From a virus, in IMG/VR virus record IMGVR_UViG_3300036046_000003, positions 8,428 to 72,427 of that record: 64,000 nt of DNA. One strand, 5' to 3'. Below are positions 1-58,725 of the stretch, piece by piece. Below the pieces are notes generated by a model. The model was not told the DNA's origin. It worked only from the letters and a program-made list of their open reading frames with translations, and made no database searches. Position 1 is the stretch's first letter; the number at the start of each line of letters is the position of its first letter. The position numbers were made by a program, and so were the translations under genes.

Positions 1-3
1 CTA

Positions 4-1248
4 ATGGCGACGATTAAAGACGCCTTTAATCGTTACTGGCTAGATAAGATCCTAGAGACAACGTATCATAAAAAGCAGGCGTACTTGCGCCAAGGCGTTC
101 CGTTCTTGCAGGGCGTTCCGCGTTACGGGTATGTGCGCCAGGGGAAGCGGGGCGCGGCGATTGCGGCGATAGACGAGGAAGTACGGCCTGTTATACAGCG
201 CATTTACGATCTAGCAGACGCAGGATTTAGTGGGCACGCCATAGCAAGGCAATTGAGTGACGCGCCAACCCCACAGCAGCGCCGGTCGAAAACGTCCCGC
301 AAAGGCAAATGGGGACTTACCGCCGTAATGAGTATTCTACGGGACGAGATTTATGCGGGAGTATTTTACGGAAACCGCACAAGTACCGTTACCGTTGACG
401 GTAAGCGTATCCGTAGTTGGAGACCCAAAGAGGAGTGGATACGGGTAGAAGTACCCGCAATTATTTCAAGGGAACAGTGGGAGCGCGTCCAACAAAAACT
501 AGACGCGGCTAATTCGGACAAGCCAAAATGGCACGCGAAGCACGAGTATCTGCTGGGTCGGCGCGTTCGCTGTGGGCGATGCGGGCGGCGAATGACTTCC
601 TATCCAGGTAGACACGACGGAAAAGGACGGCTGTACTACCGCTGCGTCAACGCGGCCAACCCACGGGTCGCCGTAACCGCTTGTGACCTTACCACGGTCT
701 TTCGTGCTGATCTCGTAGACGCGGCGGTTTGGGAGCGTCTATGCGGCTTTGTACGCCAACCGGAGGCGTTTCTTATCCGGTTGGAGGACGCACAAGAGGG
801 CCGCCGCGAGAGTACGGAGCGGGCGCAAGCTCAGCTAGACGAAACGGCGGCCCTCCTGGCCGAAAACGAGACACAGGTTGCCACTCTCGTACGTGAACTC
901 GCTAAGTATGCGGGTAGGTTGCCGGTGGTGGCCGCCGCTATCGAACAACAACTAGAGCAGCTAGGAGCTACCGAAGCCGCCTTAGCAGATCGTAAACGCC
1001 AGCTAGAGGCTCGCCTCAAACAGAAAGCGGCAGCCGAAATTGAACTAACGTCACTGGCGGACGTAGCGGCGCGCATTGCACCCCTGCTAGACCGCGCTGA
1101 CTTTCAAACAAAACGAACCGCTGTAGAGCTTTTACAGTGGCAATTTGAACTGGACGTGGTGGAAGGGCGGCGCTCTGTCGCGGTGCTCTGGTTCGACGTT
1201 CGTAGCGAGTTTTTTGTGGAGCACGCAAAAAAGCCAAAACAGCCGTAG
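4..1248 (+). CDS. Large serine recombinase/integrase (recombinase domain, Zn ribbon, coiled coil); N-terminal catalytic domain probably lies before the window
   Basis: PRYGY motif, IL.DEIYAG, VPAIISREQW, LLGRRVRCGRCGRRM...YYRC zinc ribbon, C-terminal coiled coil. Confidence 0.9.
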   Translation: MATIKDAFNRYWLDKILETTYHKKQAYLRQGVPFLQGVPRYGYVRQGKRGAAIAAIDEEVRPVIQRIYDLADAGFSGHAIARQLSDAPTPQQRRSKTSRKGKWGLTAVMSILRDEIYAGVFYGNRTSTVTVDGKRIRSWRPKEEWIRVEVPAIISREQWERVQQKLDAANSDKPKWHAKHEYLLGRRVRCGRCGRRMTSYPGRHDGKGRLYYRCVNAANPRVAVTACDLTTVFRADLVDAAVWERLCGFVRQPEAFLIRLEDAQEGRRESTERAQAQLDETAALLAENETQVATLVRELAKYAGRLPVVAAAIEQQLEQLGATEAALADRKRQLEARLKQKAAAEIELTSLADVAARIAPLLDRADFQTKRTAVELLQWQFELDVVEGRRSVAVLWFDVRSEFFVEHAKKPKQP

Positions 1249-12346: not shown

Positions 12347-12724
12347 ATGGCCGAGGTGAACCTTACAATTCAAACAAACGCAACGTTTGACCGGCTCTTC
12401 GTATGGACGAATACGGACGGGTCACGACGTTCGTTGGCGGGCTACAAAGCGCAAATGCAAGTGCGCAAAGCGCCCGGAAAAGCGCTGCTGCTTAACCTTA
12501 CTAGCGCAGGGGGCGCAATTAGGCTAGAGCAGGACGACCACCAAAATAGCGTGGTGGGTGTGTTTCGCGTCGTAATACCCGCTGCGCTGACTGCAAATAT
12601 ACTTTCCACCGGGCCTTTTCCGTACGACCTGCGTATATGGGCTGACAATTCGCTACAAGAGCCTGCGTACCGTTTGCTGGAAGGGCTAGTCACCTTCGAC
12701 GTAGGAGTGTCGATCAATGAGTGA
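12347..12724 (+). CDS. Virion fibre-anchor/baseplate-upper-like protein
   Basis: TF.R.F.W...L.GY.A.MQVR...YDL...LLEG pattern, upstream of collagen fibre. Confidence 0.6.
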
Positions 12725-13610
12725 CCCGGTTATTGTAGTGGCCCCCCCGGCAACCGTTTTAGCTGTGTCCGGGCCAACAGGAGCACAAGGCCCTGCGGGG
12801 CCTGCTGGGGCCGTAGGGCCTGCCGGGGCTGTAGGGCCTGCTGGTGCCGTAGGGCCAACAGGAGCACAAGGCCCACAGGGAGAACCCGGCCCTGCGGGGC
12901 CTGCTGGGGCCGTAGGGCCAACAGGAGCACAAGGCCCACAGGGAGAACCCGGCCCTGCGGGGCCTGCTGGGGCTGTGGGGCCACAGGGAGAACCCGGCCC
13001 TGCGGGGCCTGCTGGGGCTGTGGGGCCACAGGGAGAACCCGGCCCTGCGGGGCCTGCCGGTCAAACAGTAGCTGCGGGTCGGGCGCGGGTGTCAGGAGAA
13101 AACGCGCACTTAGGTTTGCCCGGTATTTTGTTTACTGGCGTAGGGACGGTCACGCTGGCCGCCAACCGGCTTTTGTACGCCCCGCTTGTGTTGCAGCATT
13201 CGCTGACCATAGACCTGCTTAGCGTAGAGGTTACTACAGCCGGGGCTGCGGGGGCGCTCATTCGTCTAGGTTTGTACCAGGCGGATATAGACAACCAACC
13301 AACAGACCTTGTGCTGGACGCGGGGGAAGTGGACGGCGCAAGTGTCGGCGTAAAGACGATCAGCGTAAACATCTCTCTTTCTGTGGGGCGCTATTTATTG
13401 GTGCTTAACACCAACGCAACCCCTACGTTGCGCACTTTTCGTTCTGGTTCGCCCTTTGTGAATAGCGTGCTTGGCGCGACCCCGTTTTTCTCGGCGCTAC
13501 GTAGGTCGGGCACCACCTACGCGGTTTTTCCAGCTACCGGGGTCGGCTGGAACAACACGAGCGCGAGTAGCGTAGGTTTTGAACACTATATTCTTTTGCG
13601 GAGCCAATAA
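12717..13610 (+). CDS. Collagen-like fibre protein
   Basis: Long Gly-X-Y run ([18 protein letters not shown]) at ~12770-13060. Confidence 0.85.
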
Positions 13611-44476: not shown

Positions 44477-44582
44477 TCGTTCAATCTCCTTTTGTTGGCT
44501 TTCTTGCCGCGTCGCCCTCACTTGTGGCGACCGCCGCAGTGTAGCGCGCCCCTCCGCAAGCGTCTACTAGTACGCCGCACTC

Positions 44583-45280
44583 GTGCAGTAAATGCAGAAC
44601 TTTTCTCCGTTCCGCCAAAACCTTGTCAAGAGATTTATGAGAAAATAGATTACAGTTTTGTAATGTGTATTTGGCTTTGGAACGCGGTAAAACCGAAATA
44701 GGTACCCCGAACTACCTGCTTCTACCCCTCTTTTTGTCCCATTAACTTGTTTTTAACTGGTATACTAAGAGGGCCTTTAGGGAGGTGGGGTTGTAGGAGT
44801 GCGTCTCCTCTAGAAAACGCGTTAGCGTTTCCGTCGAGCGGAGCGAGACGGGCCTGGGGGTGCAGGGGCGCGGCTAGCGCCCCGCGTAGTTGTACGTGTT
44901 GCCCCTACCCTGCCTAGTGTCGGCCTGTGCGGCCCAAAGCGGGAACTTCGGAAAATATATAGGGTTGTGAAAAGTATCACAACCCTCCTCGTGTACCCAA
45001 CACAAGCCCGAAGAACACAAAGACCGCTCTAACCCTACGGGTTGTGTAGGCTATTCCAGTTCCCTCTTCTTCCTATAGCTCTCTCTCTTAAAGAACCTTC
45101 TCTGTTCAAGTATATGGATTGTGAAACTTTTCACAGCCTTGTGCAGTTAATGCAGAACTCGGGAAGAAGCGGCGCAGTTTTTCGCAGTTGCGAAGTAGAA
45201 GTACCCTACTCAGGTATACCCTTCTGGTTCTATCGTCGCACCTGGAGCTTCCCAGGCCCCTTGTAGGTCATTCTAGGAGA
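44583..45280 (-). repeat. Long non-coding repeat element, copy 3 (inverted)
   Basis: Reverse complement aligns to copies 1 and 2 with scattered substitutions. Confidence 0.95.
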
Positions 45281-45317
45281 GAGCGGCGACAGAGAGTAAA
45301 CGCACGAGGAGGGGCAC

Positions 45318-45362
45318 AAAAAAGAGACCCCCCTGAGAAAGGGGGGGGGTCTCTTTTTTATT
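45318..45362. terminator. Bidirectional terminator
   Basis: AAAAAAGAGACCCCCC...GGGGGGTCTCTTTTTT. Confidence 0.75.
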
Positions 45363-45367
45363 TGCTT

Positions 45368-46204
45368 TTAGACGTTGCGATTGCGGCAGCTCGCGCAACG
45401 TAGCTTTCCGTCAGCGCCCGCTTTGCGTGCTTGTTTGATCGCCGCTCCTTTCGCGCCGGGGTTCAACGCGACGCCACAGTCCGCGCAGACCTCGTTCGGA
45501 ATTACTTCAACGGGGGCCGGGAAGCTTTCAGCTTCGCGTGGAAGCGTCAACACGGACGGGGGCGCAGCGTCTACCGGGCCGAAAGGTACGGCTGGTGCTG
45601 GCAACTGTGAAAGAAGTTTCGCCGCGAACGCACGGCGCTGCTCTACCAGGGCTTCCATTTTTCGGTCAAGTTCCTGCTGAAAGGCCAGTTCCGCCGTAAT
45701 CGGCGCGAGACGCCGCTCTACAGCGGAAGTGGGAGTTTGTTCTAGCTCTAACTCTCGATGTCGCTTTACCCAGCCGGACAGACTTAGGTATACCCCAAAC
45801 GGAGGAAGCGCCGCCCATACACCTACCAACAACGCCGCGCCTGCGGGCACTCCCCACAGAGAAAAATCGCGTACCGCTGCCCAGGCCGAAGCTACCTCGG
45901 TTGCTCGGTACAGCGCCGACCAGCCCTCCACAAAGTTGGGCAGTACCGCAGCCGTCAACAGGCCGCGAGCCAACCAATCTAAGGGCTTATCCCATAGCAG
46001 GTAGAACCGCGTAAGGATTTTTGCGCCAAAGGCCATACCCTCGAAGATAAGTACCACGAGTGCTGCGCCGAGGGCGGAGCTGTGCGTAAGCGCGGCGACG
46101 CCGTATGTGGCCGGTACACTGACGGCCAAGCAGATAAGCGCGAAGATAAGCAGGAAACTAGAAAGCGCGTCCAGCGAACGTTTTTTGTGGGCAGGGGGCT
46201 GCAT
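45368..46204 (-). CDS. 4-TM membrane protein with coiled coil and C-terminal Zn ribbon (SpdB/DUF2637-like architecture)
   Basis: Four hydrophobic helices, WAALPP, Pro-rich linker, CADC...CASC. Confidence 0.6.
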   Translation of the reverse strand: MQPPAHKKRSLDALSSFLLIFALICLAVSVPATYGVAALTHSSALGAALVVLIFEGMAFGAKILTRFYLLWDKPLDWLARGLLTAAVLPNFVEGWSALYRATEVASAWAAVRDFSLWGVPAGAALLVGVWAALPPFGVYLSLSGWVKRHRELELEQTPTSAVERRLAPITAELAFQQELDRKMEALVEQRRAFAAKLLSQLPAPAVPFGPVDAAPPSVLTLPREAESFPAPVEVIPNEVCADCGVALNPGAKGAAIKQARKAGADGKLRCASCRNRNV

Positions 46205-46212
46205 TGCTTCTC

Positions 46213-46632
46213 CTAGTGAATAGGGACTAGCGCGGCGGGCTGCGCAGCGAACCACAGCCAAAGTAGCGCCAACGCGCAGAGGATTACAAGAAACAGTTTG
46301 AACCCTACTTTAAGCCGTCGCAAAAGCTTGCGAAGTCGCCGCTCTAACGGGTGCTGCGCTTGATTGATCGCGTCGTCCAGGGCGGCTACTGCGAACGCGG
46401 GGTCTACATTGAACCATTCTCCAGCAAGCCGCCATTTGGCAAGGCGTCTGTGTGTAGCTGCTTCGATTTCAAACGGCTTTGCGACAGGACGCCAGCCGCG
46501 TAAGTAGAGCCGCTGGCTATTCCCCGTTTGCAGTTGGCTCCGCCGACCGCCCTTGCTTTCCGGGTGTCGGTTCGCTTTGCCGACCTTTACCGGGCCGTTA
46601 TTACCTTCCTGGTAGACGTAAATACCTGCCAT
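46213..46632 (-). CDS. GIY-YIG (T5orf172/MUG113-like) domain with C-terminal TM
   Basis: IY...VKVG...R.SQLQTGN...E...H..L...GEWF; hydrophobic tail. Confidence 0.8.
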   Translation of the reverse strand: MAGIYVYQEGNNGPVKVGKANRHPESKGGRRSQLQTGNSQRLYLRGWRPVAKPFEIEAATHRRLAKWRLAGEWFNVDPAFAVAALDDAINQAQHPLERRLRKLLRRLKVGFKLFLVILCALALLWLWFAAQPAALVPIH

Positions 46633-46637
46633 TGCCT

Positions 46638-46934
46638 TTACAAACCCCCTATCCAGTCAGAAATACGCCCGTTGTGGTGTGCGTCCCATAGTGCGTGTAC
46701 AAAGCGCTCCACTTCGTCCCGCCAAGACCACCACTTGTCTACAATCCTTACCCAACCCTCGGGCAGCTCCGCCTCGTCGTCGAAAGAACCGTACTCCCCG
46801 GTAGCGGGGTTATACCCGGCGGTGTAGCCCCCAGGTTCTCTTCCGGTCAGAAGCTCGTCCAGAGTAAACAACTCACGAATAACGGGCTTTCCTAGCTCCG
46901 CCGCTTGTGCCGCGAACTCCGATTGAAAACTCAT
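46638..46934 (-). CDS. Hypothetical protein
   Basis: AAAGG RBS, 98 aa. Confidence 0.55.
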   Translation of the reverse strand: MSFQSEFAAQAAELGKPVIRELFTLDELLTGREPGGYTAGYNPATGEYGSFDDEAELPEGWVRIVDKWWSWRDEVERFVHALWDAHHNGRISDWIGGL

Positions 46935-47017
46935 TGTTTACGCCTTTCTATTGGCTTAGAACCCGCTTATTTGTTACGCTTGTCGTTCTTCTCAGCGAAA
47001 TACGCCAACACAACGGC

Positions 47018-47224
47018 CTAGAAGGACGTAGCGACGAAGGTGTACACAAGGTAACAATTCAGGCAGAGCAGCGCCCATAGAACGGGAACCCAGGCGGGCA
47101 CCAACGCGGCCAGGACGAACAAGAGCGTGGCGCACAGCCCGAAGGTCGCCACCAGCGCGAAGGGCAGCTCCGCGTTTGTCAGTTCGTTTAGAACGGTACT
47201 CATAAAACGATTAGCCTTCGGCAT
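47018..47224 (-). CDS. Small 2-TM protein
   Basis: Hydrophobic; TAATG coupling. Confidence 0.55.
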   Translation of the reverse strand: MPKANRFMSTVLNELTNAELPFALVATFGLCATLLFVLAALVPAWVPVLWALLCLNCYLVYTFVATSF

Positions 47225-47469
47225 TAACTACCCTTCTTATCCAGTGCCGCGTTTTCCGCTTCGATATACCTGATATACGCCGTCTCTAGGTCACGCGCCG
47301 CCTGCGCTGCTTTTAGCAGAGCCGCCGACAGTTGCTCGGCTTCCTCGAAGGAAAGTCCGCAGTATACGATCTCGCCAGTTTCAGCCCTTCCCTGTAGGCA
47401 TACGTCGGTGGGGCCGAGACCCCACTCGCAGGCGACGACAAACACGGGAACTGAGAGTAAGCGCGCCAT
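47224..47469 (-). CDS. Hypothetical protein
   Basis: 81-aa ORF in operon. Confidence 0.5.
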   Translation of the reverse strand: MARLLSVPVFVVACEWGLGPTDVCLQGRAETGEIVYCGLSFEEAEQLSAALLKAAQAARDLETAYIRYIEAENAALDKKGS

Positions 47470-47492
47470 TGGACAAATCGCTTTCTGTGCTA

Positions 47493-48029
47493 TTAGGGAG
47501 TTTCGGAAATCTTTTTAACTAATGTACAGACTTTACGGTAGCGGTCGCCCCCGGTGGCCCCAAACACAAGGCGTATAGCCTCTGTTTTACTAGCCCCGCG
47601 ACCTATTAGCGTGCGGACTTCCCTTGCCCCCGCTTCGTCCAAGGGCCGTGACGCCGCCGCTTCACTTACCAGTTTTCTTTCGCGGTCAACCCGCCCCCTT
47701 GCTTTAGCGGTACGAAACGGTGGTTCAGTCGCCGTGCGTGTTCCTAACTCCGCGTCCAGGCGCGCCATTGCGTTCCCCAAATGAAACAACTGCTCTACGC
47801 GGTCTTTAGGCCCGCTAAACCACTCATTGCGAAATCTATAATCCTGCAAAAGTTCGTGAACTTCCCGCTCCACTCGGTACGGATTGGGCTGTTCGTAAGT
47901 GGCAACGACAGACTGCACGAGCGGGCAACCCGTTTGAAGGGTTTTCGTCCTTTGAAGCGCGTCGCTGTCTGTGACCCCAATCTTAAAATAGTCCGTATCG
48001 CCCATTTGAATTAAATAAACAAGCCCCAT
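47493..48029 (-). CDS. GIY-YIG (T5orf172-like) domain + C-terminal HTH-like domain
   Basis: VYLI...FKIG...LQTG.P...E..VH...NEWF; SKTEAIRLVFGATGG.RY. Confidence 0.8.
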   Translation of the reverse strand: MGLVYLIQMGDTDYFKIGVTDSDALQRTKTLQTGCPLVQSVVATYEQPNPYRVEREVHELLQDYRFRNEWFSGPKDRVEQLFHLGNAMARLDAELGTRTATEPPFRTAKARGRVDRERKLVSEAAASRPLDEAGAREVRTLIGRGASKTEAIRLVFGATGGDRYRKVCTLVKKISETP

Positions 48030-48033
48030 TAGC

Positions 48034-49854
48034 TTATTCCTGACTTTTGTGTTGCTGCGCGGTTTCCACAACAATTTTTACCGCCTCAAACTCGTATCGA
48101 AGCCGCTGGTACGCACGTCCGCCGGTAACGCCTGTAGTCTTTTTTAGCGCCGTTGCTACCTCATTTCCGTTTGTTTTGTAGACCTGCAAAGTTTTGACTA
48201 GTACCTTCCGGTTTTCCGCAGATAGCCTTCGAAACACCAAAAGCGCCTCCTTAAAGCTAGTTGGTACAAACTGACCTTCCCCCCTGAAAGGGCCGGAAGG
48301 CGCATTGTTACGCCTTGGAAGGTCATCGGAAGAGGAAGGCGACCCAGCTACCGCCAAGTTACCCACAGGTCTACCTTCCGCCTTGCCTTCCGTGTTATTT
48401 ACCGACCCTTCCAACAGTTCCGCCAGAAGGCATAGGCTATCCTCCGAAACCTCCCTGTTTGGCGCTTCGTTCGCTTGTACCCCCGCGAAGCCTGGATACG
48501 CAGGTGCCGCTATACTTTTCCGTGGAAGTCCCTCTACAATTTCGTCAAATCGGTCTTCGTTTGCTTCGGGGTCGCCGCGAAATATCGGCGTTCGCAGCAG
48601 CGTAAACTCCCCGCGAACTTTTGCCACAAAAACCCCCCGCTCCTGTGGCGGCGGTGGAATTTTGCTCGGTCGAAACGGCAGTGCGGTAGTGTCGCGTACT
48701 CCTAATGCTGGGCCGTCCTGAGAGCCGTCCACTAGCGCCCCAGCAAGCACCGTAGAGAGGTTCATTCGCCAATCCAGACCCTTTCCTGTTGGCGTTTGCA
48801 TAGATACCAACACCCGGATACCCAACGACCTCGCTTTGCTGACCAGGGCCGCCAAAAGCGCTTCCACTTCCCCTGTTATCGCGTCCATTACGTCCGTGAC
48901 CACCACCACAAGCAGCGGCAGCTCAGCGACCCCGCCTTGCGCCGCCCGTTTGTTGTACTGTTCTCGCGTTCGGCAGCCCGCCGAAACAAGCAACTCCTGG
49001 CGGCGCTCGGCCTCGGCGTCAATGACCTTGCAAGCCATTAGAATAGCTTCGCGGCCCTTTTTACCGTAGCCCCCCGCAGGCGGAAAGAACATATGAGACA
49101 GCCCCGACAGGGCGGGCACTAACCAATCTGATTTACCGTCCAGGAACGCAAACTGTAGCGTTTCCGGCCCGTTTCGGCTCGCCAAAAGCGCGAACCAACA
49201 GCGCAAGAGTGCGTCTTTTCCCGCCCCGCTCGTACCGTAAATACCTATATGAAGCAAATCCAGGGCAAGATCGCCCCACACCTGCTTTCCGAGATAATCT
49301 GTGCCCAACGGCACTGCGGTTGTGCTGGCAGGAAACGGCTGAAACTCACCCAAAAGCACGCGCTTTGGAAGTGCGTTTAGTGCAGAAGCCATTGACGCCG
49401 AGGGGCTTTGCAAGCCAGCAGGACGGCTTGCCGCGCCTTTTAGACCGTCGTCATCTTCCCGGCCACGCCCCTTCGACCTCTCCGGGGGCACAGCCGAGGT
49501 TTGAGCCGTTGCTACGGCTTGCGAAGTCGTAGCGCTGGGCGGCGTTTTTGCCGCTAGTTCTTTTCGAGCGGGGGCGGACAAGCGCGCCGGTGTAGTCTCT
49601 ACCAGCCGCACCAATCCCGGCCAGGAACCTTGCGCGTACGTATTCCGGGCCACCTGACGTGGGTCAATGGCTAAGGCTTTGCAAACGGCGGCGGCGACGG
49701 AGGGCGAACGGCGAAGAAAGTATTGACCGAGCGGCAGCAGGAAAAGAGGAGCTGCCCCAGCGGCTCCCCCTGCCACACCGATAGCCGCAAGCAAAATATC
49801 GGTCGCGTCGAATGGAGGTGGGTTTTTTGGCTTGTTCTCTATCGAAGTTTCCAT
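48034..49854 (-). CDS. FtsK/SpoIIIE/TraB-family ATPase with N-terminal TM
   Basis: HIGIYGTSGAGK, FAFLDGK, E.ERR, LPLLVVVVTD, KARSLGI.V..SMQ.P. Confidence 0.85.
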   Translation of the reverse strand: METSIENKPKNPPPFDATDILLAAIGVAGGAAGAAPLFLLPLGQYFLRRSPSVAAAVCKALAIDPRQVARNTYAQGSWPGLVRLVETTPARLSAPARKELAAKTPPSATTSQAVATAQTSAVPPERSKGRGREDDDGLKGAASRPAGLQSPSASMASALNALPKRVLLGEFQPFPASTTAVPLGTDYLGKQVWGDLALDLLHIGIYGTSGAGKDALLRCWFALLASRNGPETLQFAFLDGKSDWLVPALSGLSHMFFPPAGGYGKKGREAILMACKVIDAEAERRQELLVSAGCRTREQYNKRAAQGGVAELPLLVVVVTDVMDAITGEVEALLAALVSKARSLGIRVLVSMQTPTGKGLDWRMNLSTVLAGALVDGSQDGPALGVRDTTALPFRPSKIPPPPQERGVFVAKVRGEFTLLRTPIFRGDPEANEDRFDEIVEGLPRKSIAAPAYPGFAGVQANEAPNREVSEDSLCLLAELLEGSVNNTEGKAEGRPVGNLAVAGSPSSSDDLPRRNNAPSGPFRGEGQFVPTSFKEALLVFRRLSAENRKVLVKTLQVYKTNGNEVATALKKTTGVTGGRAYQRLRYEFEAVKIVVETAQQHKSQE

Positions 49855-49880
49855 TTGCGCGTTTCCTTATGCGGCTGCTT

Positions 49881-50460
49881 GCAAGTCACTCTAGTGGCTT
49901 GCGCGCCTCGTCTTGGTGGGTGCATTGTATCCTTTCGCGCCGCAGCTGTCTACTATATCTCCGCAACCCGTCGCGTTTTAAGCCACTCTAGTGGCTTGCA
50001 AGCCGTTTTACCCCGGTAGTGCGCTCAAATCGGGGTTTAAGCCACTCTAGTGGCTTGCAAGGTCGCTTGCAGCCGTCGATTTTCACCGCCACCAGGCCCC
50101 AAAACGGGCTTTTCGTGCGTTTCCCTGGTGGTAGGCCCACAAAGAACGCCTCTCGGGGGCTGTCCCAAGAGGCGTTTTAAGCCACTCTAGTGGCTTGCAA
50201 GCCGTTTTACCCCGGTAGTGCGCTCAAATCGGGGTTTAAGCCACTCTAGTGGCTTGCAAGGTCGCTTGCAGCCGTCGATTTTCACCGCCACCAGGCCCCA
50301 AAACGGGCTTTTCGTGCGTTTCCCTGGTGGTAGGCCCACAAAGAACGCCTCTCGGGGGCTGTCCCAAGAGGCGTTTTAAGCCACTCTAGTGGCTTGCAAG
50401 CCGTTTTACCCCGGTAGTGCGCTCAAATCGGGGTTTAAGCCACTCTAGTGGCTTGCAAGG
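49881..50460. repeat. Array of seven 18-bp palindromes AAGCCACT-CT-AGTGGCTT within a 199-bp tandem repeat
   Basis: Copies at 49883 (variant), 49980, 50039, 50179, 50238, 50378, 50437. Confidence 0.95.
49924..49952 (-). promoter_or_regulatory. Sigma70-type promoter for the FtsK operon
   Basis: TAGACA-N17-TACAAT on - strand. Confidence 0.65.
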
Positions 50461-50464
50461 ACTC

Positions 50465-51160
50465 TTAGGCCCGCCCGGCGGTGCGTGCGTCGCCTCGCCC
50501 GGTTTCTGGCGCGCCTTTCATTGCGTTCAGAATAAGCACAATACCGGCGGCAAGAAACAAAATAAAGGCCATTTCCATAACCAGGGACGCGATTAACGTC
50601 ATTACGAGCTTGGCGGCAATACCAAGACCGCCAGCAAACGGCCCCGCCCACAAGAGCGCGCCCCGGTCAATGTACGTCTGGACGAAGAGCGCCGAACGCT
50701 CTAAGTCGGTGATAAAATCAAACACGATAAAGGCGTACACGAGCCATTCAATAAAGGTAATCCCCGCCCGCGCCAACCGCGCCCCGAACAATTCCAACAG
50801 CGTTGGAAACAACGAAACGAGGGTGCCCACCATAACGGCCCACTGTGGCGAAACCAAACCGTAGCTGCTTTCCACCGCCCGGCGGGCTTCGGCCAGCCAA
50901 TCGTAGGTACTCTCCAAGTCAAAGTAGTAGGCAAGGCCACCACAGATACTAGCGATAGCGAGAAACGCGATACCGCTAATCATCGCCGAACGCCCTGTAG
51001 TACCGCGTACCGCCTTGAACGCTCGTTCAAGATTTTCGCTCAGGTCAAGCCAGCCGAGAAAGTCCCCGTTTCTGCCAAAAGCCGCATAGAGCAAACCCGC
51101 AATCGCCAAAAAAACAAGCCAATCGAAGGGGCCGTAACCGTTAAAAGGATTGTACAGCAC
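50465..51160 (-). CDS. Multi-TM membrane protein
   Basis: ~5 hydrophobic helices; GAGGAG RBS. Confidence 0.7.
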   Translation of the reverse strand: MLYNPFNGYGPFDWLVFLAIAGLLYAAFGRNGDFLGWLDLSENLERAFKAVRGTTGRSAMISGIAFLAIASICGGLAYYFDLESTYDWLAEARRAVESSYGLVSPQWAVMVGTLVSLFPTLLELFGARLARAGITFIEWLVYAFIVFDFITDLERSALFVQTYIDRGALLWAGPFAGGLGIAAKLVMTLIASLVMEMAFILFLAAGIVLILNAMKGAPETGRGDARTAGRA

Positions 51161-51245
51161 TGAGTTCTCCTCTGGTTTTGCGAAGTATTACTCCGCAGGT
51201 ACGATAAGTAAAGAGCGCCCCTTTCGGAGCGCCGGAAGGTTTAGC

Positions 51246-51761
51246 TTACTTTTGTAGGTCTGCCTTCGCCAACTGAACGATAGCGAGCATAAGCGCCACC
51301 ACCTTGCGGCGCTCGCCAATCGGAATATCGTCCAGTTCTCGGGCTACTGGACTAAAATCCCCGGCGCTAGGTAGCTTGTAATTGCGTATGTCAACCTCAT
51401 CAAACCACCCATCAGCTAAGCCAAACTCTAGTGGATTACAGCCAATAACCTCCGCAATCCTGCGGAACGTTTGCGGTTTTGCTTTAGAGCGGCCACTAAG
51501 AATGGCCGACAAAAAGCCCCGCGAAAGCGGTTCCTCCACCACGGTCGCGGCTTCCCCCTCTACCCGGGTATCAACAGGCCGCTTTGCCCTGGCGGCCACG
51601 TCCGATACGTTCAACCCCAGCGTTCTGTCGGCGTATAAGAGCCAATAGCCCAGGCAGAGGGTTAAGTCCTCTAGCCGATGTTCGTGAAGGTACGCGAACA
51701 GCGCGTCGGTATTGCGCCCATAGGTCGCCTCTGCGGCGCGATATTTACTTTCTACTGCCAC
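51246..51761 (-). CDS. XRE-like HTH regulator
   Basis: LSRGFLSAILSG...P...T..RIA..IG; GGAGGAGG RBS. Confidence 0.7.
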   Translation of the reverse strand: MAVESKYRAAEATYGRNTDALFAYLHEHRLEDLTLCLGYWLLYADRTLGLNVSDVAARAKRPVDTRVEGEAATVVEEPLSRGFLSAILSGRSKAKPQTFRRIAEVIGCNPLEFGLADGWFDEVDIRNYKLPSAGDFSPVARELDDIPIGERRKVVALMLAIVQLAKADLQK

Positions 51762-51774
51762 CTCCTCCTACTTT

Positions 51775-52659
51775 CTACACCGGAACAGAAACCGCAGCGG
51801 GTCGCGTCGCCGGTTTCTCGCCGCGCCGCCGCAAATACAAACCCTCTAACCGCGCCGTTGCCTGCGCCGTATAGCGCTGCGTCGTCTCACAACGCTTATG
51901 CCCTGCTATACGCCGTACCGCGTCAATATCCCCCCCGTTGGGGTCGTCCAGCAACTCGGTAAGCAGTTGGTGGCGGAACAAATGAGGGTGAACGTCCGGG
52001 CGACCTACAACCGCGCCCAGCTCTGTAACAAGCTGCCGTACCCGTTGGTCGCTCAACTCAAACAAGCGCCCCGTTTTCGGAAAGCCGCGCAGCGCAAGAT
52101 AATGCCGAAGCGCCCCGGCTGTCTGGTGATCGAAATAGACTAGTCGCTCGTCTCCGCCTTTCCCCATTACCGTCGCCTTGCCCGCTTCGTCCGCGTGGCG
52201 GGGAAACTGCACGTTTTCGATACACAAACCCACGACTTCGCTTACGCGCCCGCCTGTGGCCCGCAACACCAGCAAAAGTGCCAGGTTACGCGCCCCCGCT
52301 ACCGTAGTGGTGTCGCAAGCACAGCACATTCCCTCAAACTCTTCCGGCGAAAGCAACTGCGGAAGTACCAGCGGTACTTTAACCCCGCGAACGGCAAGCG
52401 CCGCCAATACGTCGCCGCTTAGTAGCTCCTCCGCCACCGCCCAGGTCAAAAACGCACGTGCTGCCGACAGTCGCCGGTTCACCGTCGCCGGTGCGTAACC
52501 CTGCTGTAGTGCTTGCCGGTACGCGGCTAGTTGCTTTGGTCGCAACTCCTCTACGCTGTATCCGTTATCGGATAACCACTGAGAGAAGGCGCGGAGGTCA
52601 GCGGCGTAGGCGCGGCGGGTCTGCGGGGACTGTAGGGTATCGAGAAACCGGGGGAGCAT
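51775..52659 (-). CDS. Tyrosine recombinase (XerC/D-like)
   Basis: T.RAY..DL, TG.RVSE, GKG..ER, HPHLFRH, GH....T.RY. Confidence 0.93.
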   Translation of the reverse strand: MLPRFLDTLQSPQTRRAYAADLRAFSQWLSDNGYSVEELRPKQLAAYRQALQQGYAPATVNRRLSAARAFLTWAVAEELLSGDVLAALAVRGVKVPLVLPQLLSPEEFEGMCCACDTTTVAGARNLALLLVLRATGGRVSEVVGLCIENVQFPRHADEAGKATVMGKGGDERLVYFDHQTAGALRHYLALRGFPKTGRLFELSDQRVRQLVTELGAVVGRPDVHPHLFRHQLLTELLDDPNGGDIDAVRRIAGHKRCETTQRYTAQATARLEGLYLRRRGEKPATRPAAVSVPV

Positions 52660-53059
52660 AAAAGGAGCCTTTGCACTAACTGCACAAGTAGTATACGCGG
52701 TCTGTCAACTCTGCGCAACTGCGGCGTACTTTAGTCGGCGGGCGGCGGCGCGATCCCGTTCCTGGGCGCGGCGTTCTTTTGAGCGGGACGCCTCTACCGG
52801 CGGGTCTTCGTCCACGTACTCTTCTGCGGGGTTGTTTCGTTCACGCAGGCGGGGTTGCCGTTCTTTGCGAAGCACCAGTGTCTCCTTTCCTACCGCCGCG
52901 TACGGGGCGGCTAGCTCGAAAAGTATACAGTTGCTTCGCAGCGGCGTCTATCGAACGGGTCGGAATTGAACCTATTGCTAGTCGTTATCTCCGTAGACCG
53001 CCGAGGGGCTATTCCCTCTTGTGGGCAACCTAATGCGGGTTGCGTATACGGAGGGACGA

Positions 53060-54595
53060 ATGCCAGACGAGACAGTCAACGGGAACCTTACGGTGACGGG
53101 GACGGTGTACGCCGATAACTTTAGAACAGCGGCGTCTGGTTTGCTTTCTATCGAAAAAGATAACGCTAAACTAAACCTGTCACGCAGCTCTAATGTTACA
53201 ACGGCAAGCCTTAGTGTGGCTACTTCGGGCAGTATCGCGCTTGTCGCGGATAATGGAGAGACTATTGCTTCGTATCGTGCTTTGGCACACCGCTTCTATT
53301 TGGGCGGCTCTGCGCAACCCTTTTTCATCGCGGATAACAACCGACTAGAGTATGTCACCTCCTATTACGACAAGTATAGCGTTACCGGCGATAATGAAGC
53401 CGGTCAGATTGAAGTAAACGCCGTAACAAGCGGAGGGGCAGAGGCGGTACTCCAATCATACGCTGCGCGCCACGATTTTTTTGTTTTAGGCAACCACCGG
53501 GCTGCCTTTACCTCCGGATTAGAGCTTTATGGCGGGCAGGGAGCGGCCAGTGTCTCGGCGCGTAGTAATTCGGGTGGGGCCGCAATCCCGCTGGTGCTAA
53601 ACGGCAGTGACGTTGCTGTTACTGCCCCTTTTAGTGCCCCGTCCGTGTTGGTTTTCGGCCAGGTCAGCGCTGGTAATCTAAGTACGGTTGGTTCGATTGC
53701 TGCGCCGGGTGTGCTTATCCAGAACCAAAATATCCAGGCAAACGGTTGGCTGGCCTCTCAGTCTTTGTCGGCAGACCAGCGGATTGAACTGCGATCTATT
53801 GACGGCGGTGGCGTTCGCGTTCGCGCCAGTAACTTTGCAAACAACGCGCTCCGTCCGCTAGACCTGGAAGCTAGTGTAGTGAGAACGCCAGGGTGGGTCT
53901 CTGTCGGAAGTGGCACACAGAACTATACGCCAACTGGCTCCACCTGGGCTACCGGCGGCGCTACCTTGCTGCTGAATGGCCTGGATACGACTTCGATTGC
54001 TTTTCACGACGCCAATAACCGCGTGGACGCAATTGTAGCGGGCGGCGGTCTGATGCGCGTTGGGCCGGATACCGGCTTTGGCCCTGCGAACGTTCAAACC
54101 TACGGCTTTACCGGCGCGGGCGGCGTTCCTCTTGCGAACCAGCGTATGCGCGTCTATTCTAGCGGCGATAACAGCGGTCACTTCCCTCTCGCCGTTGTGA
54201 ATAGCGCAGGCAGCGCGGCGCTGATGTACGTTCGCGGCGATGGTTACGCCTGGACGAGCCAGCCGTGGGCTGTTGGCTCCGACGAACGCCTGAAAGACAA
54301 GGTTGAGCCGCTTGACGCTACCGCGCTAGAGAAGTTGGCCCAGGTTACGTTCCACCGCTACCAGCTTCGCGCAAACGGCCTCCCGCAAGTCGGGGTCATA
54401 GCGCAGGAGCTACAGCAGGTGTTCCCTGAACTGGTGAGCGAACACCACGACCCGGCCAACCCGAACGAGGCACCGCTGCTGGCGGTCAACTATCAGGGTC
54501 TCGCGGTCTACCAGGGAGCCGCAATCCAGCAACTCGCCGCAAAGGTTGCGGGCTTGGAAGAGCGTCTGGCCGCACTCGAAAAGCGCTTTGCCTAG
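53060..54595 (+). CDS. Second tail fibre/receptor-binding protein with S74 chaperone
   Basis: SDERLKD..., GVIAQELQ.VFPELV; ~60-aa block near-identical to 27036..29645. Confidence 0.85.
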   Translation: MPDETVNGNLTVTGTVYADNFRTAASGLLSIEKDNAKLNLSRSSNVTTASLSVATSGSIALVADNGETIASYRALAHRFYLGGSAQPFFIADNNRLEYVTSYYDKYSVTGDNEAGQIEVNAVTSGGAEAVLQSYAARHDFFVLGNHRAAFTSGLELYGGQGAASVSARSNSGGAAIPLVLNGSDVAVTAPFSAPSVLVFGQVSAGNLSTVGSIAAPGVLIQNQNIQANGWLASQSLSADQRIELRSIDGGGVRVRASNFANNALRPLDLEASVVRTPGWVSVGSGTQNYTPTGSTWATGGATLLLNGLDTTSIAFHDANNRVDAIVAGGGLMRVGPDTGFGPANVQTYGFTGAGGVPLANQRMRVYSSGDNSGHFPLAVVNSAGSAALMYVRGDGYAWTSQPWAVGSDERLKDKVEPLDATALEKLAQVTFHRYQLRANGLPQVGVIAQELQQVFPELVSEHHDPANPNEAPLLAVNYQGLAVYQGAAIQQLAAKVAGLEERLAALEKRFA

Positions 54596-55673: not shown

Positions 55674-56201
55674 TTACTCCCCGGCACAACGGCGAATGTC
55701 CTCTAGCGCCTCCTCTGTACTTGCAAACCAGTTGGGGATACGCTCTAGGTTCGGGTCGCTGGCCTGATAAATCAGGGCCGCTGCCGCGTTTGTTCCCAGC
55801 CGCGCCTCTAACGCCGCCCCGGCTTGCCCGGCGAGTGTTACTACCCAACCGGCCCGACAGTGGGTTGTCCCGCAGTGCCAGCTACCCATATCCAGCCCGC
55901 CTGTAGAGACCGCTTCAAGCAGTGCCCGGTGAATATTTGGCACTACGGGAATAACCGCAGGTAGAATGGCCCCGCTCAGGTTGGCCTCACACAGGTCGGC
56001 CCCGTTCAGGTCGGCGTTGCGCAGGTCGGCCCGGCGCAGGTCGGCCCCGCTCAGATTAGCCCCGCTCAGGTCGGCCCAGTACAGGTCGGCCCCGCTCAGG
56101 TCGGCCCCGCCAAGGTCGGCGTTGCTCAGGTTGGCGCGCGCCCCGTTCGGGTGGTCGTTCAGCCAAAGCTGATGGTTAGCGATCACTTCTTCGATATTCA
56201 C
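55674..56201 (-). CDS. Pentapeptide repeat protein
   Basis: A(D/N)LxG repeats; C-terminal CGTTHCRAGW. Confidence 0.9.
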   Translation of the reverse strand: MNIEEVIANHQLWLNDHPNGARANLSNADLGGADLSGADLYWADLSGANLSGADLRRADLRNADLNGADLCEANLSGAILPAVIPVVPNIHRALLEAVSTGGLDMGSWHCGTTHCRAGWVVTLAGQAGAALEARLGTNAAAALIYQASDPNLERIPNWFASTEEALEDIRRCAGE

Positions 56202-57575: not shown

Positions 57576-58328
57576 TTACTCGCCCGCACAACGGCGAATA
57601 TCCTCTAGCGTCTCTTCGTTACTCGCGAACCAGTTAGGAATACGCTTTAGAGACGGGTCGCTGGCCTGATAAATCAGGGCTGCTGCCGCGTTCGTTCCTA
57701 ACCGCTCCTCTAATGCCGCCCCCGCTTCTCCTGCCAGCATTACAATCCAGCCCGCCCTACAATGGGTTGTCCCGCAGTGCCTTCTACTCATAGCTAGCCC
57801 GCCCGTAGAGACCGCTTCGTAGAGCGCCTGGTGAATGTCGGGCACTACGGGGATACCGTCAGGGAGAAAGGCCCCGCTCAGGTCGGCCCCGCTCAGGTTG
57901 GCCCCGCTCAGGTTGGCGTAGCGCAGGTTGGCGGCGCTCAGGTCGGCGTCGCTCAGGTTGGCCCCGCTCAGGTTGGCCCTGCTCAGGTTGGCGTTGCGCA
58001 GGTTGGCCTCGCTCAGGTAGGCGTAGCGCAGGTCGGCCCCGCTCAGGTAGGCGTCGCTCAGGTTAGCCCCGCTCAGGTTGGCCCCGCTCAGGTTGGCGGC
58101 GCTCAGGTTGGCCTCGCTCAGGTAGGCCCCGCTCAGGTCGGCGTCGCGCAGGTTGGCGGCGCTCAGGTTGGCCTCGCTCAGGTAGGCCCCGCTCAGGTCG
58201 GCCCCGCTCAGGTTGGCCCCGCTCAGGTTGGCGTAGCGCAGGTTGGCGTAGCTCCGGTCGGCGCGAATGCCGTTAGGGTCGCCGTTCAACCAGAGCTGAT
58301 GGTTAGCGAGCACTTCGGTGATATTCAC
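57576..58328 (-). CDS. Pentapeptide repeat protein (longer paralog)
   Basis: More A(N/D/Y)LSG repeats, same N- and C-terminal domains as 55674..56201; GTG start at 58328. Confidence 0.9.
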   Translation of the reverse strand: MNITEVLANHQLWLNGDPNGIRADRSYANLRYANLSGANLSGADLSGAYLSEANLSAANLRDADLSGAYLSEANLSAANLSGANLSGANLSDAYLSGADLRYAYLSEANLRNANLSRANLSGANLSDADLSAANLRYANLSGANLSGADLSGAFLPDGIPVVPDIHQALYEAVSTGGLAMSRRHCGTTHCRAGWIVMLAGEAGAALEERLGTNAAAALIYQASDPSLKRIPNWFASNEETLEDIRRCAGE

Positions 58329-58356
58329 GACTAGGTACCTTTCTGTAGGTTGCTTC

Positions 58357-58725
58357 TTACGTAGACCGGGGGCGAACGTCGTCCGCTGAAACCCAACCCT
58401 CTTCTTCGGGCGCTTCGGGCCAATGAACCAGATACGGGAGGTCTCTATCGCAATCATCTACCTCTACAACCTCCCCGGCGATCCAACTGCCCTTGACGTA
58501 TACCTCTACGGCGTCTCCCTCTTCGTAAAGCAGCGCGTCCGGGTAATCCCCGTCCGCGTTCGCGTCCGGGTCAGGAACAAATTCGTTCCTGACGGCCCAC
58601 TCTACCGCGTCCGAAAAAGACAGTTCGTAAACGAGTGAGCTAATCAAGTTCTGCGCAGTTGCGTTCAGGCCCGCGTGGTTGTCGAACAGCGATCCTAGCA
58701 AGTCTTCTCGATTGACGTAGACCAT
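58357..58725 (-). CDS. Hypothetical protein with Tudor/SH3-like C-terminus
   Basis: GD.VEV...G.W..GEV......YLVHW......WV....VRP. Confidence 0.6.
   Translation of the reverse strand: MVYVNREDLLGSLFDNHAGLNATAQNLISSLVYELSFSDAVEWAVRNEFVPDPDANADGDYPDALLYEEGDAVEVYVKGSWIAGEVVEVDDCDRDLPYLVHWPEAPEEEGWVSADDVRPRST

Follow-up and report, generated by a model that had tools for sequence, protein, structure and literature searches.

Passages of two papers state that conjugation of double-stranded DNA (dsDNA) by a single protein is limited to multicellular Actinobacteria (PMC5704250, PMC3218068). In the TraB/clt/Spd systems of pSVH1, pIJ101 and pSAM2, a membrane-associated motor of FtsK fold is found on an element without a relaxase and a type IV secretion system (T4SS), and the passage on clt describes these loci as 8-bp direct repeats (PMC4447253). 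Integrative and conjugative elements of actinomycetes (AICEs) are defined, in the part of the source concerned with them, by an integrase (Int), a replication protein (Rep) and an FtsK/SpoIIIE-type Tra protein between att sites, usually at the 3' end of a tRNA gene, and are given there as found only in Actinomycetales (PMC3218068). We analysed a 64,000-nt stretch of viral DNA, called the window here, which comprises bases 8428-72427 of the 72,427-bp virus record IMGVR_UViG_3300036046_000003. The record bears 127-bp direct terminal repeats and is rated complete, and the greater part of this complete 72.4-kb genome of a tailed phage falls within the window. Our subject is a block of ten co-oriented minus-strand genes running from 52659 to 45368, which encodes a membrane-anchored FtsK-like protein.

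An earlier note on this DNA had interpreted the block as a TraB/Spd/clt-like dsDNA transfer module, with which the phage may pump its DNA between the cells of a host filament and leave them unlysed. All genes and repeats listed in that note were found in their given places on the minus strand. We tentatively read the block as a phage accessory region with a conserved two-gene membrane module, possibly, if well short of probably, a DNA translocase of the conjugation type. By analogy, the module would work like TraB or TcpA, without belonging to the TraB, Spd or clt families. That is, the earlier interpretation held in part at the level of how the module may work, and its assignments to TraB, clt and Spd were refuted.

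The motor protein and its membrane partner

The larger protein of the pair, termed the motor here, is a 606-aa membrane-anchored P-loop protein of FtsK/SpoIIIE fold (48034-49854, minus strand). It belongs to FtsK_SpoIIIE by its PF01580 score of 37.8 bits against a gathering cut-off of 24. Together with an N-terminal hydrophobic anchor at residues 19-43, seen in both hydropathy and the model, and with the fold of the FtsK dsDNA motor, this match confirmed the transmembrane (TM)-anchored FtsK ATPase that had been noted before. The model, built from an alignment of 70 sequences with a mean predicted local distance difference test score (pLDDT) of 80.4, consists of an N-terminal helix pair (17-31 and 35-49), a disordered linker, a core at about 150-450, a further disordered linker and a C-terminal four-helix domain at 534-605 (pLDDT 92-97). 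Its best fold matches in the PDB were FtsK motors with dsDNA (6t8o, 6t8b and 2ius; E 6e-15, root-mean-square deviation ~3 Å over ~310 columns, 22% identity), followed by EccC/EssC (8e-14 to 3e-13) and by TcpA, the coupling protein of pCW3 (2.5e-12); an Atlas structure search also returned FtsK translocases. At the sequence level, the motor matched phrog_1358 in PHROGs (8e-19) and, among curated profiles, EssC (38 bits), EccCa (36), FtsK (24.5) and TraB (15). It had no close relatives in IMG/VR as a single-sequence query. The motor family comprised 164 proteins at E<=0.001 among 8000 scored candidates, with a core that is ~57% identical.

The next gene upstream (50465-51160, minus strand) encodes mTM, a polytopic membrane protein of an unnamed family, which corresponds to the multi-TM protein of the earlier note. 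It shows about five hydropathy segments and an all-helical model (pLDDT 87.5, predicted TM-score (pTM) 0.80). No fold in the PDB matched this model at E<=0.001 (best E 0.99), and a PDB sequence search with mTM gave no significant match. As a single query in a word-indexed search mTM found no relatives; these surfaced with profiles, which collected 171 representatives at E<=0.001 among 1.8 billion. None of 60 members has a Pfam family.

We then counted how often the two genes occur together, using a profile search across all open reading frames (ORFs) at loci where no less than 1400 nt were available on the upstream side of the motor gene. An mTM homolog was located directly upstream of the motor in 46 of the 49 unique loci; the exceptions were two contigs of Gemmatales metagenome-assembled genomes (MAGs) and locus L024, where a different four-TM protein is found. 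The motor start overlapped the upstream stop by 4 nt in every locus scored (18/18). When window ORFs of at least 55 aa were compared with 100 fetched loci by BLASTP, relatives were detected for only four of them, namely the motor (93 loci), mTM, the terminase and a RusA-like protein; the ORFs came from a greedy non-overlapping pick, which may have left out the 68-aa gene at 47018-47224. Five of the six genes behind the motor had no relatives in the 100 loci (the 68-aa gene was possibly outside the set), and the block DNA gave no blastn match in the phage collection. Judged from these gene neighbourhoods, the conserved unit is the pair of mTM and motor, not the block.

The C-terminal domain of the motor appears a second time in the window. 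A profile of this domain matched the C-terminus (~159-189) of the neighbouring T5orf172 protein (47493-48074) with E values of 3e-7, 2e-6 and 5e-7, and the next window protein came at E>=0.03, indicating by profile comparison that the two proteins share a small C-terminal domain. A direct BLASTP comparison of these two proteins gave no significant match, the link being made by the profile only, and the domain has no Pfam family. The same profile did not match a Latilactobacillus FtsK, and its matches to the two Herpetosiphon proteins described below were weak (E 0.007 and 0.14).

Relatives of the pair and its possible role

Loci were obtained for 17 IMG/VR relatives, for four loci in two MAGs among 185,579 species genomes and for 80 of 128 metagenome relatives. 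The module is carried by mobile replicons linked to Chloroflexota, which include tailed phages, an integrated element and, in a distant form, plasmids. In a quick tree with long outgroup branches, the clade of the window phage (13 rows, support 98) was sister to a clade of ~30-kb phages and Gemmatales sequences, the Oscillochloris protein fell in a third clade, and the Herpetosiphon proteins formed the sister group of the motor family.

The integrated element lies on a contig of an Oscillochloris MAG (L022, 2690-16468). It is 13.7 kb long and sits in tRNA-Phe, and the 45-nt direct repeat at its two borders is identical to the 3' end of this tRNA gene; genes for a release factor and an adenosine deaminase flank it on one side, and genes for AFOR, GcvT and GAF proteins on the other. 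The element encodes an integrase, an HTH_17 Xis-like protein, a Cro/C1-type helix-turn-helix (HTH) protein, mTM, the motor, a HicB-like protein, an MmeI-type restriction-modification (RM) protein, two proteins without assignment and an 874-aa RepB-primase-like protein. Its mTM is 36% identical (1e-28) and its motor 46% identical to those of the window phage. The Cro/C1-type gene occupies the same position as the HTH gene of the window, without sequence similarity to it, and no virion family was matched among the 17 contig ORFs scanned. With its set of Int, Rep and FtsK/SpoIIIE proteins at the 3' end of a tRNA gene, the element agrees with the AICE definition in all points. The window block does not agree with it; an integrase and an FtsK-like protein are present, and there is no Rep within the block and no flanking direct repeat of 10 nt or longer.

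The distant form of the pair was found on both plasmids of a filamentous bacterium, Herpetosiphon aurantiacus, namely pHAU01 (L106, 674-2724) and pHAU02 (L109, 4978-6998). Haur_5007 and Haur_5297 scored 146 and 115 bits, respectively, on the family profile; both are anchored at the N-terminus and show the GKD motif. In both cases, a small polytopic protein is encoded directly upstream, with a 4-nt overlap or a 2-nt gap. These upstream proteins are not significantly similar to mTM.

A function that is useful to plasmids, an integrated element and phages, combined with a membrane motor of FtsK fold and its partner, is most simply explained if the element's own dsDNA is moved across a membrane or a septum. 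From the modelled fold and anchor, the gene pairing and the distribution, we infer complex formation, a DNA substrate, ATP turnover and a direction and purpose of transport as follows. Together with mTM, the motor would form an assembly at the membrane, would bind the element's own dsDNA through its C-terminal HTH-like domain and would drive this DNA across the membrane or septum; it could act alone, like TraB, or feed a host channel, like TcpA. In the window phage, a 610-bp insertion would give the motor and the six following genes their own promoter amid seven palindromes. Cell-to-cell spread of phage DNA, including septal spread, is possible. The most far-reaching version, in which a two-protein machine of a channel-like mTM and an FtsK-fold pump with swapped Mg-ligand motifs moves dsDNA between cells in replicons of filamentous Chloroflexota and lets the phage spread without lysis, is doubtful in our view; if true, it would amount to conjugation in the manner of TraB beyond the Actinobacteria.

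Several observations weigh against the translocase reading. Walker A reads GxxGxGKD, with an unusual GKD in place of GK[S/T], and Walker B reads hhhh[T/S]D[V/I] in 70/70 members, and in all 70 the Walker B strand is without the following Asp-Glu pair. Because the catalytic Glu has no counterpart in the motor in the HMMER gapped alignment, the motor may not hydrolyse ATP as FtsK does. Meanwhile, in a comparison with the canonical Walker motifs, arginine finger and sensor-1 Gln of the HerA-FtsK clade, K213, R342, R347 and Q353 were seen to be kept in 70/70 aligned members. In an ungapped register, taken from the invariant Pro only, T/S aligns with the Asp of Walker B and D321 with the catalytic Glu, and the two Herpetosiphon relatives read S-E at the Walker B position; this register and the S-E reading suggest that the Mg ligands may be swapped, rather than the site being dead. 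The register of acidic residues at Walker B depends on the alignment chosen, and for an active pump it would cut both ways. Skewed 8-mers resembling FtsK-orienting polar sequences (KOPS) or TraB recognition sequences (TRS) were searched in the phage genome, and only those from the tandem repeats in the pentapeptide genes were found. Viral contigs of ~30 kb have the pair within their replication module. In L018, a replication protein gene is followed by genes for DNA polymerase A and a Cas4-like exonuclease, by small genes, then by mTM and the motor and by a PAPS-reductase-like gene, and the terminase comes ~6 kb later. The parts of the ~30-kb phages examined contained no relative of either window recombinase, and this context fits an ordinary role in the infection cycle. 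In addition, pHAU02 encodes M23 peptidases and a VirB4-like protein, and beside the latter the motor need not act alone. Finally, the link to a filamentous host made by the earlier note stood for the relatives, which are on replicons linked to filamentous Chloroflexota; these host links hold for the family and not for the window phage itself.

A membrane pair that blocks or expels foreign DNA, as in superinfection or entry exclusion, would also be useful to phages, plasmids and integrated elements alike. The site beside recombinase and regulator genes is typical of lysogeny morons, as which PHROGs files phage FtsK/SpoIIIE-like proteins; weak PADLOC matches were obtained to mad8 (1e-8) and SspH (9e-7), and from T5orf172 to PDC-S57 (1e-9). 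The Oscillochloris pair stands beside the HicB-like and MmeI-type RM genes, and HerA/FtsK domains are described as recurrent in defence systems (PMC10853773). However, these PADLOC matches do not extend beyond the generic P-loop core, the pair is inside the replication module in the ~30-kb phages, and no nuclease or effector is fused to it or conserved beside it. We consider a role in exclusion or defence unlikely.

Membrane ATPases of the FtsK family are also known from an element of the same phylum. IME1 of Dehalococcoidia, which is proposed to represent budding or filamentous dsDNA viruses, is described in a preprint as encoding an integrase, regulators, a pI-like FtsK-family ATPase, five small TM proteins and a primase-helicase, and is reported from Chloroflexota only (bioRxiv 10.64898/2026.09.15.751708). 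It resembles the window block and the Oscillochloris element in its order of gene types, with integrase and regulators, a membrane ATPase, small TM proteins and a primase, and suggests an egress role like the one proposed for IME1, in which the motor would act like the inovirus assembly and extrusion protein pI, and the small hydrophobic proteins would be structural. In contrast, the IME1 ATPase is described as pI/Zot-like, whereas the motor gave no match to Zot (PF05707) at E<=0.1 and is best matched by FtsK. The TM segment of pI lies after the ATPase domain, and the anchor of the motor is N-terminal, a topology unlike that of pI. Besides, the window phage is already equipped with genes for a terminase and a tail. 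We regard egress as a very improbable role for the module.

When compared with TraB/clt/Spd, the module is alike in its membrane-associated FtsK-type motor (FtsK fold E 6e-15, N-terminal hydrophobic hairpin), on an element without a relaxase and T4SS, in the co-oriented small membrane proteins that follow the motor and in the motor relative carried by a tRNA-integrated element with Int, Rep and FtsK-like proteins. It differs in Walker A, which is GKD here and GKS in pIJ101 Tra, in a conserved partner that is upstream, not downstream, in repeats that are palindromic and not conserved, and in carriers that include tailed phages and belong to another phylum. With the NCBIfam profile for TraB (NF041214, plasmid_TraB), the cut-off of which is 800 bits, the motor reached its 15 bits (E 0.0064), and 15.9 bits in a six-frame search. 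Conversely, pIJ101 Tra scored -0.2 bits on the family profile, on which a Latilactobacillus FtsK scored 56.7 and a Streptomyces EccC-like protein 46.5. Membership of TraB was excluded by these scores. As to a C-terminal winged HTH like that of TraB, which recognises the 8-bp direct repeats of clt, the motor has its modelled four-helix domain without a Pfam family, and the only repeats that such a domain might read are the 18-bp palindromes.

TcpA coupling proteins of pCW3 and the Tn916 family share with the motor the FtsK-like fold (E 2.5e-12, TM-score 0.59 by target) and the N-terminal anchor. A passage of one source states that integrative mobilizable elements (IMEs) carry their own TcpA to use the channel of a helper (PMC5704250). 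The motor as a coupling protein for a helper T4SS is an alternative with which the VirB4-like gene of pHAU02 agrees. By contrast, neither a T4SS nor a relaxase was found in the 40 phage proteins or the 17 Oscillochloris ORFs scanned, where a helper element may nonetheless act from elsewhere, and FtsK itself is the better fold match for the motor. The families phrog_1358 and phrog_3551 of Bacillus and Mycobacterium phages are similarly phage-borne; they are 24-30% identical over the core only and are not described with an mTM partner or GKD. From hot-spring mats, a lysogenic virus associated with Chloroflexi has been noted that carries an FtsK/SpoIIIE gene besides an integrase (PMC8597652).

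If the translocase reading is true, an unrelated FtsK-fold module on plasmids, an AICE-like element and phages in a second filamentous phylum would suggest that mobile elements use septal DNA pumps convergently or far more widely, and the old suggestion that phage DNA spreads through cross-walls would become testable. The general idea of phage DNA spreading between cells is already in print. A search for a link of TraB or AICE with Chloroflexi, Chloroflexota or Herpetosiphon returned nothing relevant among the matches listed, which is weak evidence of novelty. The strictly conserved pair of mTM and motor, the GKD and [T/S]-[D/E] swap in 70/70 members and the modelled membrane fold without a solved relative can be re-used in any case. 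Herpetosiphon aurantiacus DSM 785 is cultured and has the pair on both plasmids, providing an experimental entry point, and the Oscillochloris element merits a report of its own.

The palindrome array and the genes behind the motor

The palindrome array reported earlier is present between the mTM and motor genes. A repeat scan located seven 18-bp sites with 8-bp arms and a 2-bp centre at 49883-50460, without strand. Six are perfect copies of AAGCCACTCTAGTGGCTT within 49973-50460, where a 199-bp unit is repeated 2.5 times with 100% identity between units; the seventh, at 49883-49900, has one mismatch. The gap between the two genes is 610 nt in the window phage and contains all seven palindromes. 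Because relatives have the mTM and motor genes abutting or with a 4-nt overlap, the array is, on this comparison of loci, an insertion into a normally fused gene junction that occurs in the window phage only. A match to the palindrome was found in zero IMG/VR contigs and in zero of the 401 genomes in the phylum of the Oscillochloris MAG.

A sigma-70-like promoter candidate for the motor operon (TAGACA-17-TACAAT, 10/12 positions; 49952-49924, minus strand, i.e., the gene strand) is placed between the six perfect copies and the seventh, which is just downstream of it, where an operator would be. The promoter that had been noted in the array was thus seen as a candidate, by a consensus match only, and is weak evidence, as the scan returned 5 promoter-like sites against 2.3 expected. 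The array nevertheless appears to fit operator sites around a separate promoter better than it fits clt. We read it as a set of operators, the promoter of which uncouples the motor operon from the upstream genes. Most simply, the palindromes are operators of a dimeric DNA-binding protein. Candidates for this protein are the neighbouring HTH protein and the domain common to the motor and the T5orf172 protein. The HTH protein (171 aa; 51246-51761, minus strand) is a candidate regulator with a weak Cro/C1-type match (HTH_3, E 1.3e-3, 19.1 bits against a gathering score of 23); of the XRE HTH described earlier, the protein was confirmed, and the HTH_3 call stayed below the gathering score.

One further palindrome site was found in the window, at 49032-49049 with three mismatches, inside the motor gene; 0.04 matches of this kind are expected by chance. 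This degenerate site overlies codons of a conserved peptide in the motor, and may be due to chance or be a weak extra binding site.

We also considered the array as an RNA feature, either a mini-CRISPR-like array or a structured small RNA in three copies. It contains two hairpin-core repeats of 27-28 nt at 59 nt from each other, a CRISPR-like spacing, and the 199-nt unit folds better than shuffled sequences on both strands (z -3.9 and -3.7). However, the spacing alternates between 59 and 140 nt, all "spacers" are identical, no Rfam family, including CRISPR-DR, was matched at E<=1, and the repeat is absent from the genomes and IMG/VR contigs mentioned above. A mini-CRISPR array was rejected on these grounds. 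With the seventh copy placed like an operator, an RNA role of either kind is extremely improbable.

Six genes follow the motor with tight spacing (-49 to +83 nt), and a strong bidirectional intrinsic terminator at 45318-45359 (both strands; a 17-bp stem with T and A runs) closes the operon; its hairpin accounts for an Rfam Thr_leader match of 35 bits against a gathering score of 55. The first gene encodes the T5orf172/MUG113 protein (47493-48074, minus strand; MUG113 1.2e-15, T5orf172 5.6e-12), and the fifth a second T5orf172/MUG113 protein (46213-46632, minus strand; T5orf172 5.4e-7) with a C-terminal TM anchor at 103-138. We take T5orf172 and MUG113 to belong to the GIY-YIG clan. The two GIY-YIG proteins of the earlier note, one of them TM-anchored, were accordingly recovered as T5orf172/MUG113 proteins, with the GIY-YIG label as our assumption. 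Between them are genes for an 81-aa protein with no assigned function (47224-47469, minus strand; weak phrog_2870 match at 7e-4), the stop of which overlaps the start of the next gene, a 68-aa protein with two TM segments by hydropathy (47018-47224, minus strand; no Pfam or PHROGs match), which is the small TM protein noted before, and a 98-aa acidic protein (46638-46934, minus strand; no match in Pfam, PHROGs, NCBIfam or PADLOC).

The last gene (45368-46261, minus strand) encodes a 297-aa membrane protein in which about four TM segments, a charged stretch of helix and, at the C-terminus, a CxxC...CxxC motif were recognised. It corresponds to the protein described earlier as having four TM segments and a coiled coil, of which the TM segments were recovered. 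Its start is probably near 46204, because the database gene call is 278 aa. Only two homologs (P0272 and P0273; 52-54% identity) were found among 5.8 billion clusters, and a PDB sequence search gave no significant match. For the motor, the nearest relatives (P0002-P0013) share 44-50% identity along almost the whole protein. The longest contig is 14,234 bp for both the closest motor relative (P0002) and the 297-aa relative (P0273), which may share one contig. No relaxase or T4SS family was matched among the ten block proteins in Pfam, PHROGs, NCBIfam and PADLOC, as the earlier note had said.

In the arrangement proposed by that note, the motor would read the array as clt, the downstream membrane proteins would be Spd proteins, and the phage would pump its genome along a filament without lysis. 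On pIJ101, tra is followed by the co-oriented spdA, spdB, orf66 and kilB, each with a TM segment, and in the window phage six genes run behind the motor in the same direction, of which three encode TM segments; the motor family is linked to filamentous Chloroflexota. SpdB2 has four TM helices plus a coiled coil and is oligomeric and pore-forming; when the 297-aa protein was compared with this architecture, about four hydrophobic segments and the charged helical stretch were observed. However, SpdA, SpdB, orf66 and KilB of pIJ101, the only plasmid used for the Spd comparison, had no BLASTP match at E<0.1 to window proteins and none to the mTM profile, and there was no homology to Tra or the TraB profile; the layout would be analogous to that of pIJ101, not homologous. 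The downstream membrane genes could not be identified as Spd. A clt role of the array also failed, as its sites are 18-bp palindromes and not 8-bp direct repeats, are unique to the window phage and split genes that abut elsewhere. Five of the six downstream genes are without relatives in the 100 loci, and the 297-aa and 193-aa proteins are without a close relative in IMG/VR. We regard this arrangement as quite improbable.

The recombinase, the flanks of the block and the phage genome

The block begins with a 294-aa tyrosine recombinase (51775-52659, minus strand), confirmed by Phage_integrase (6.5e-20) and a SAM-like N-terminal domain. It is XerC/XerD-like, with NCBIfam scores of 155 bits for XerC and 150 bits for XerD, both under the cut-off (335 for the XerC equivalog). 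The phage thus contains two recombinases of different classes, since a large serine recombinase of 557 aa (phrog_95, 8e-67) is encoded at window 1-1248 (genome 8002-9675).

FtsK with XerCD-dif provides the best structural match for the motor domain, and a Xer-like recombinase stands in the same block. FtsK is anchored by a four-TM domain, whereas the anchor of the motor is modelled as a single hairpin; the motor also has no FtsK alpha or gamma Pfam domains, its Walker motifs deviate, and the recombinase is not conserved with it. These likenesses would suit a maintenance function, in which the module would separate or unlink the copies of a prophage in plasmid form at division, dimers would be resolved by the Xer-like recombinase under the motor's control, and the array would be a centromere beside the promoter of its NTPase. 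The serine integrase elsewhere can handle integration, the pair is on both Herpetosiphon plasmids, and repeats that flank the promoter of an NTPase operon recall the plasmid centromeres R1 parC and F sopC. A centromere-like role for the array is conceivable. The gamma domain of FtsK activates XerD (PMC3130261). However, recombinase and array are not conserved with the pair, and the recombinase had no relative in the 100 loci. The C-terminal profile did not match the one FtsK compared, which was not checked for a gamma domain, and the integrated element and the ~30-kb phages have little need of partition. We regard maintenance as an unlikely function.

The block might alternatively be an independent inserted element with its own att sites. 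No flanking direct repeats of at least 10 nt were found at the block, and its composition is ordinary: GC is 0.574 against 0.572 in the rest, and tetranucleotide usage is not an outlier. Nothing thus points to the block having been inserted recently with att sites, and the pair as such is clearly portable.

Apparent inverted repeats that flank the block (I20 and I22) proved to be copies of a 17-nt motif, CTTGTGCAGTTAATGCA, which occurs eight times in the window against 0.04 expected by chance. As parts of this motif between ORFs, they were rejected as att sites or element ends. Copies are at window 16879, 23372, 37176, 44580, 45138, 52672, 60106 and 63843, between ORFs and, by position relative to the ORF list, antisense to the next operon. 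The motif is probably a phage-specific promoter or regulatory site.

We scanned 40 of about 97 phage ORFs against PHROGs, and statements of absence for the phage cover these 40. The plus-strand half has the large terminase and long structural ORFs, including a tail-fibre gene at 53021-54595; terminase and tail-fibre gene bear out the earlier statement that the phage encodes a virion. A DnaB-like helicase, a primase, the RusA-like resolvase and a DNA methyltransferase are encoded in the minus-strand half, and a DNA polymerase of family A, a Cas4-like exonuclease and a dNMP kinase, together with the large serine recombinase, at or just outside the window start. From this content of terminase, tail-fibre, replication and serine recombinase genes, the phage is a tailed and probably temperate virus, in which the tyrosine recombinase is the second recombinase.

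An ORF-poor stretch of 850 nt lies behind the block at window 44522-45367; the 17-nt motif occurs in it twice, beside several hairpins and promoter-like sites. This stretch had no Rfam match except for the terminator hairpin and could hold an origin, an att site or an unassigned RNA. Two proteins made of 15-bp, pentapeptide-type tandem repeats are encoded at window 55674-56201 and 57576-58457 and match phrog_31265. At window 12798-13057, perfect tandem repeats of 45 bp and 63 bp occur within an ORF of the structural region (12717-13610), and look like a putative collagen-like Gly-X-Y repeat.

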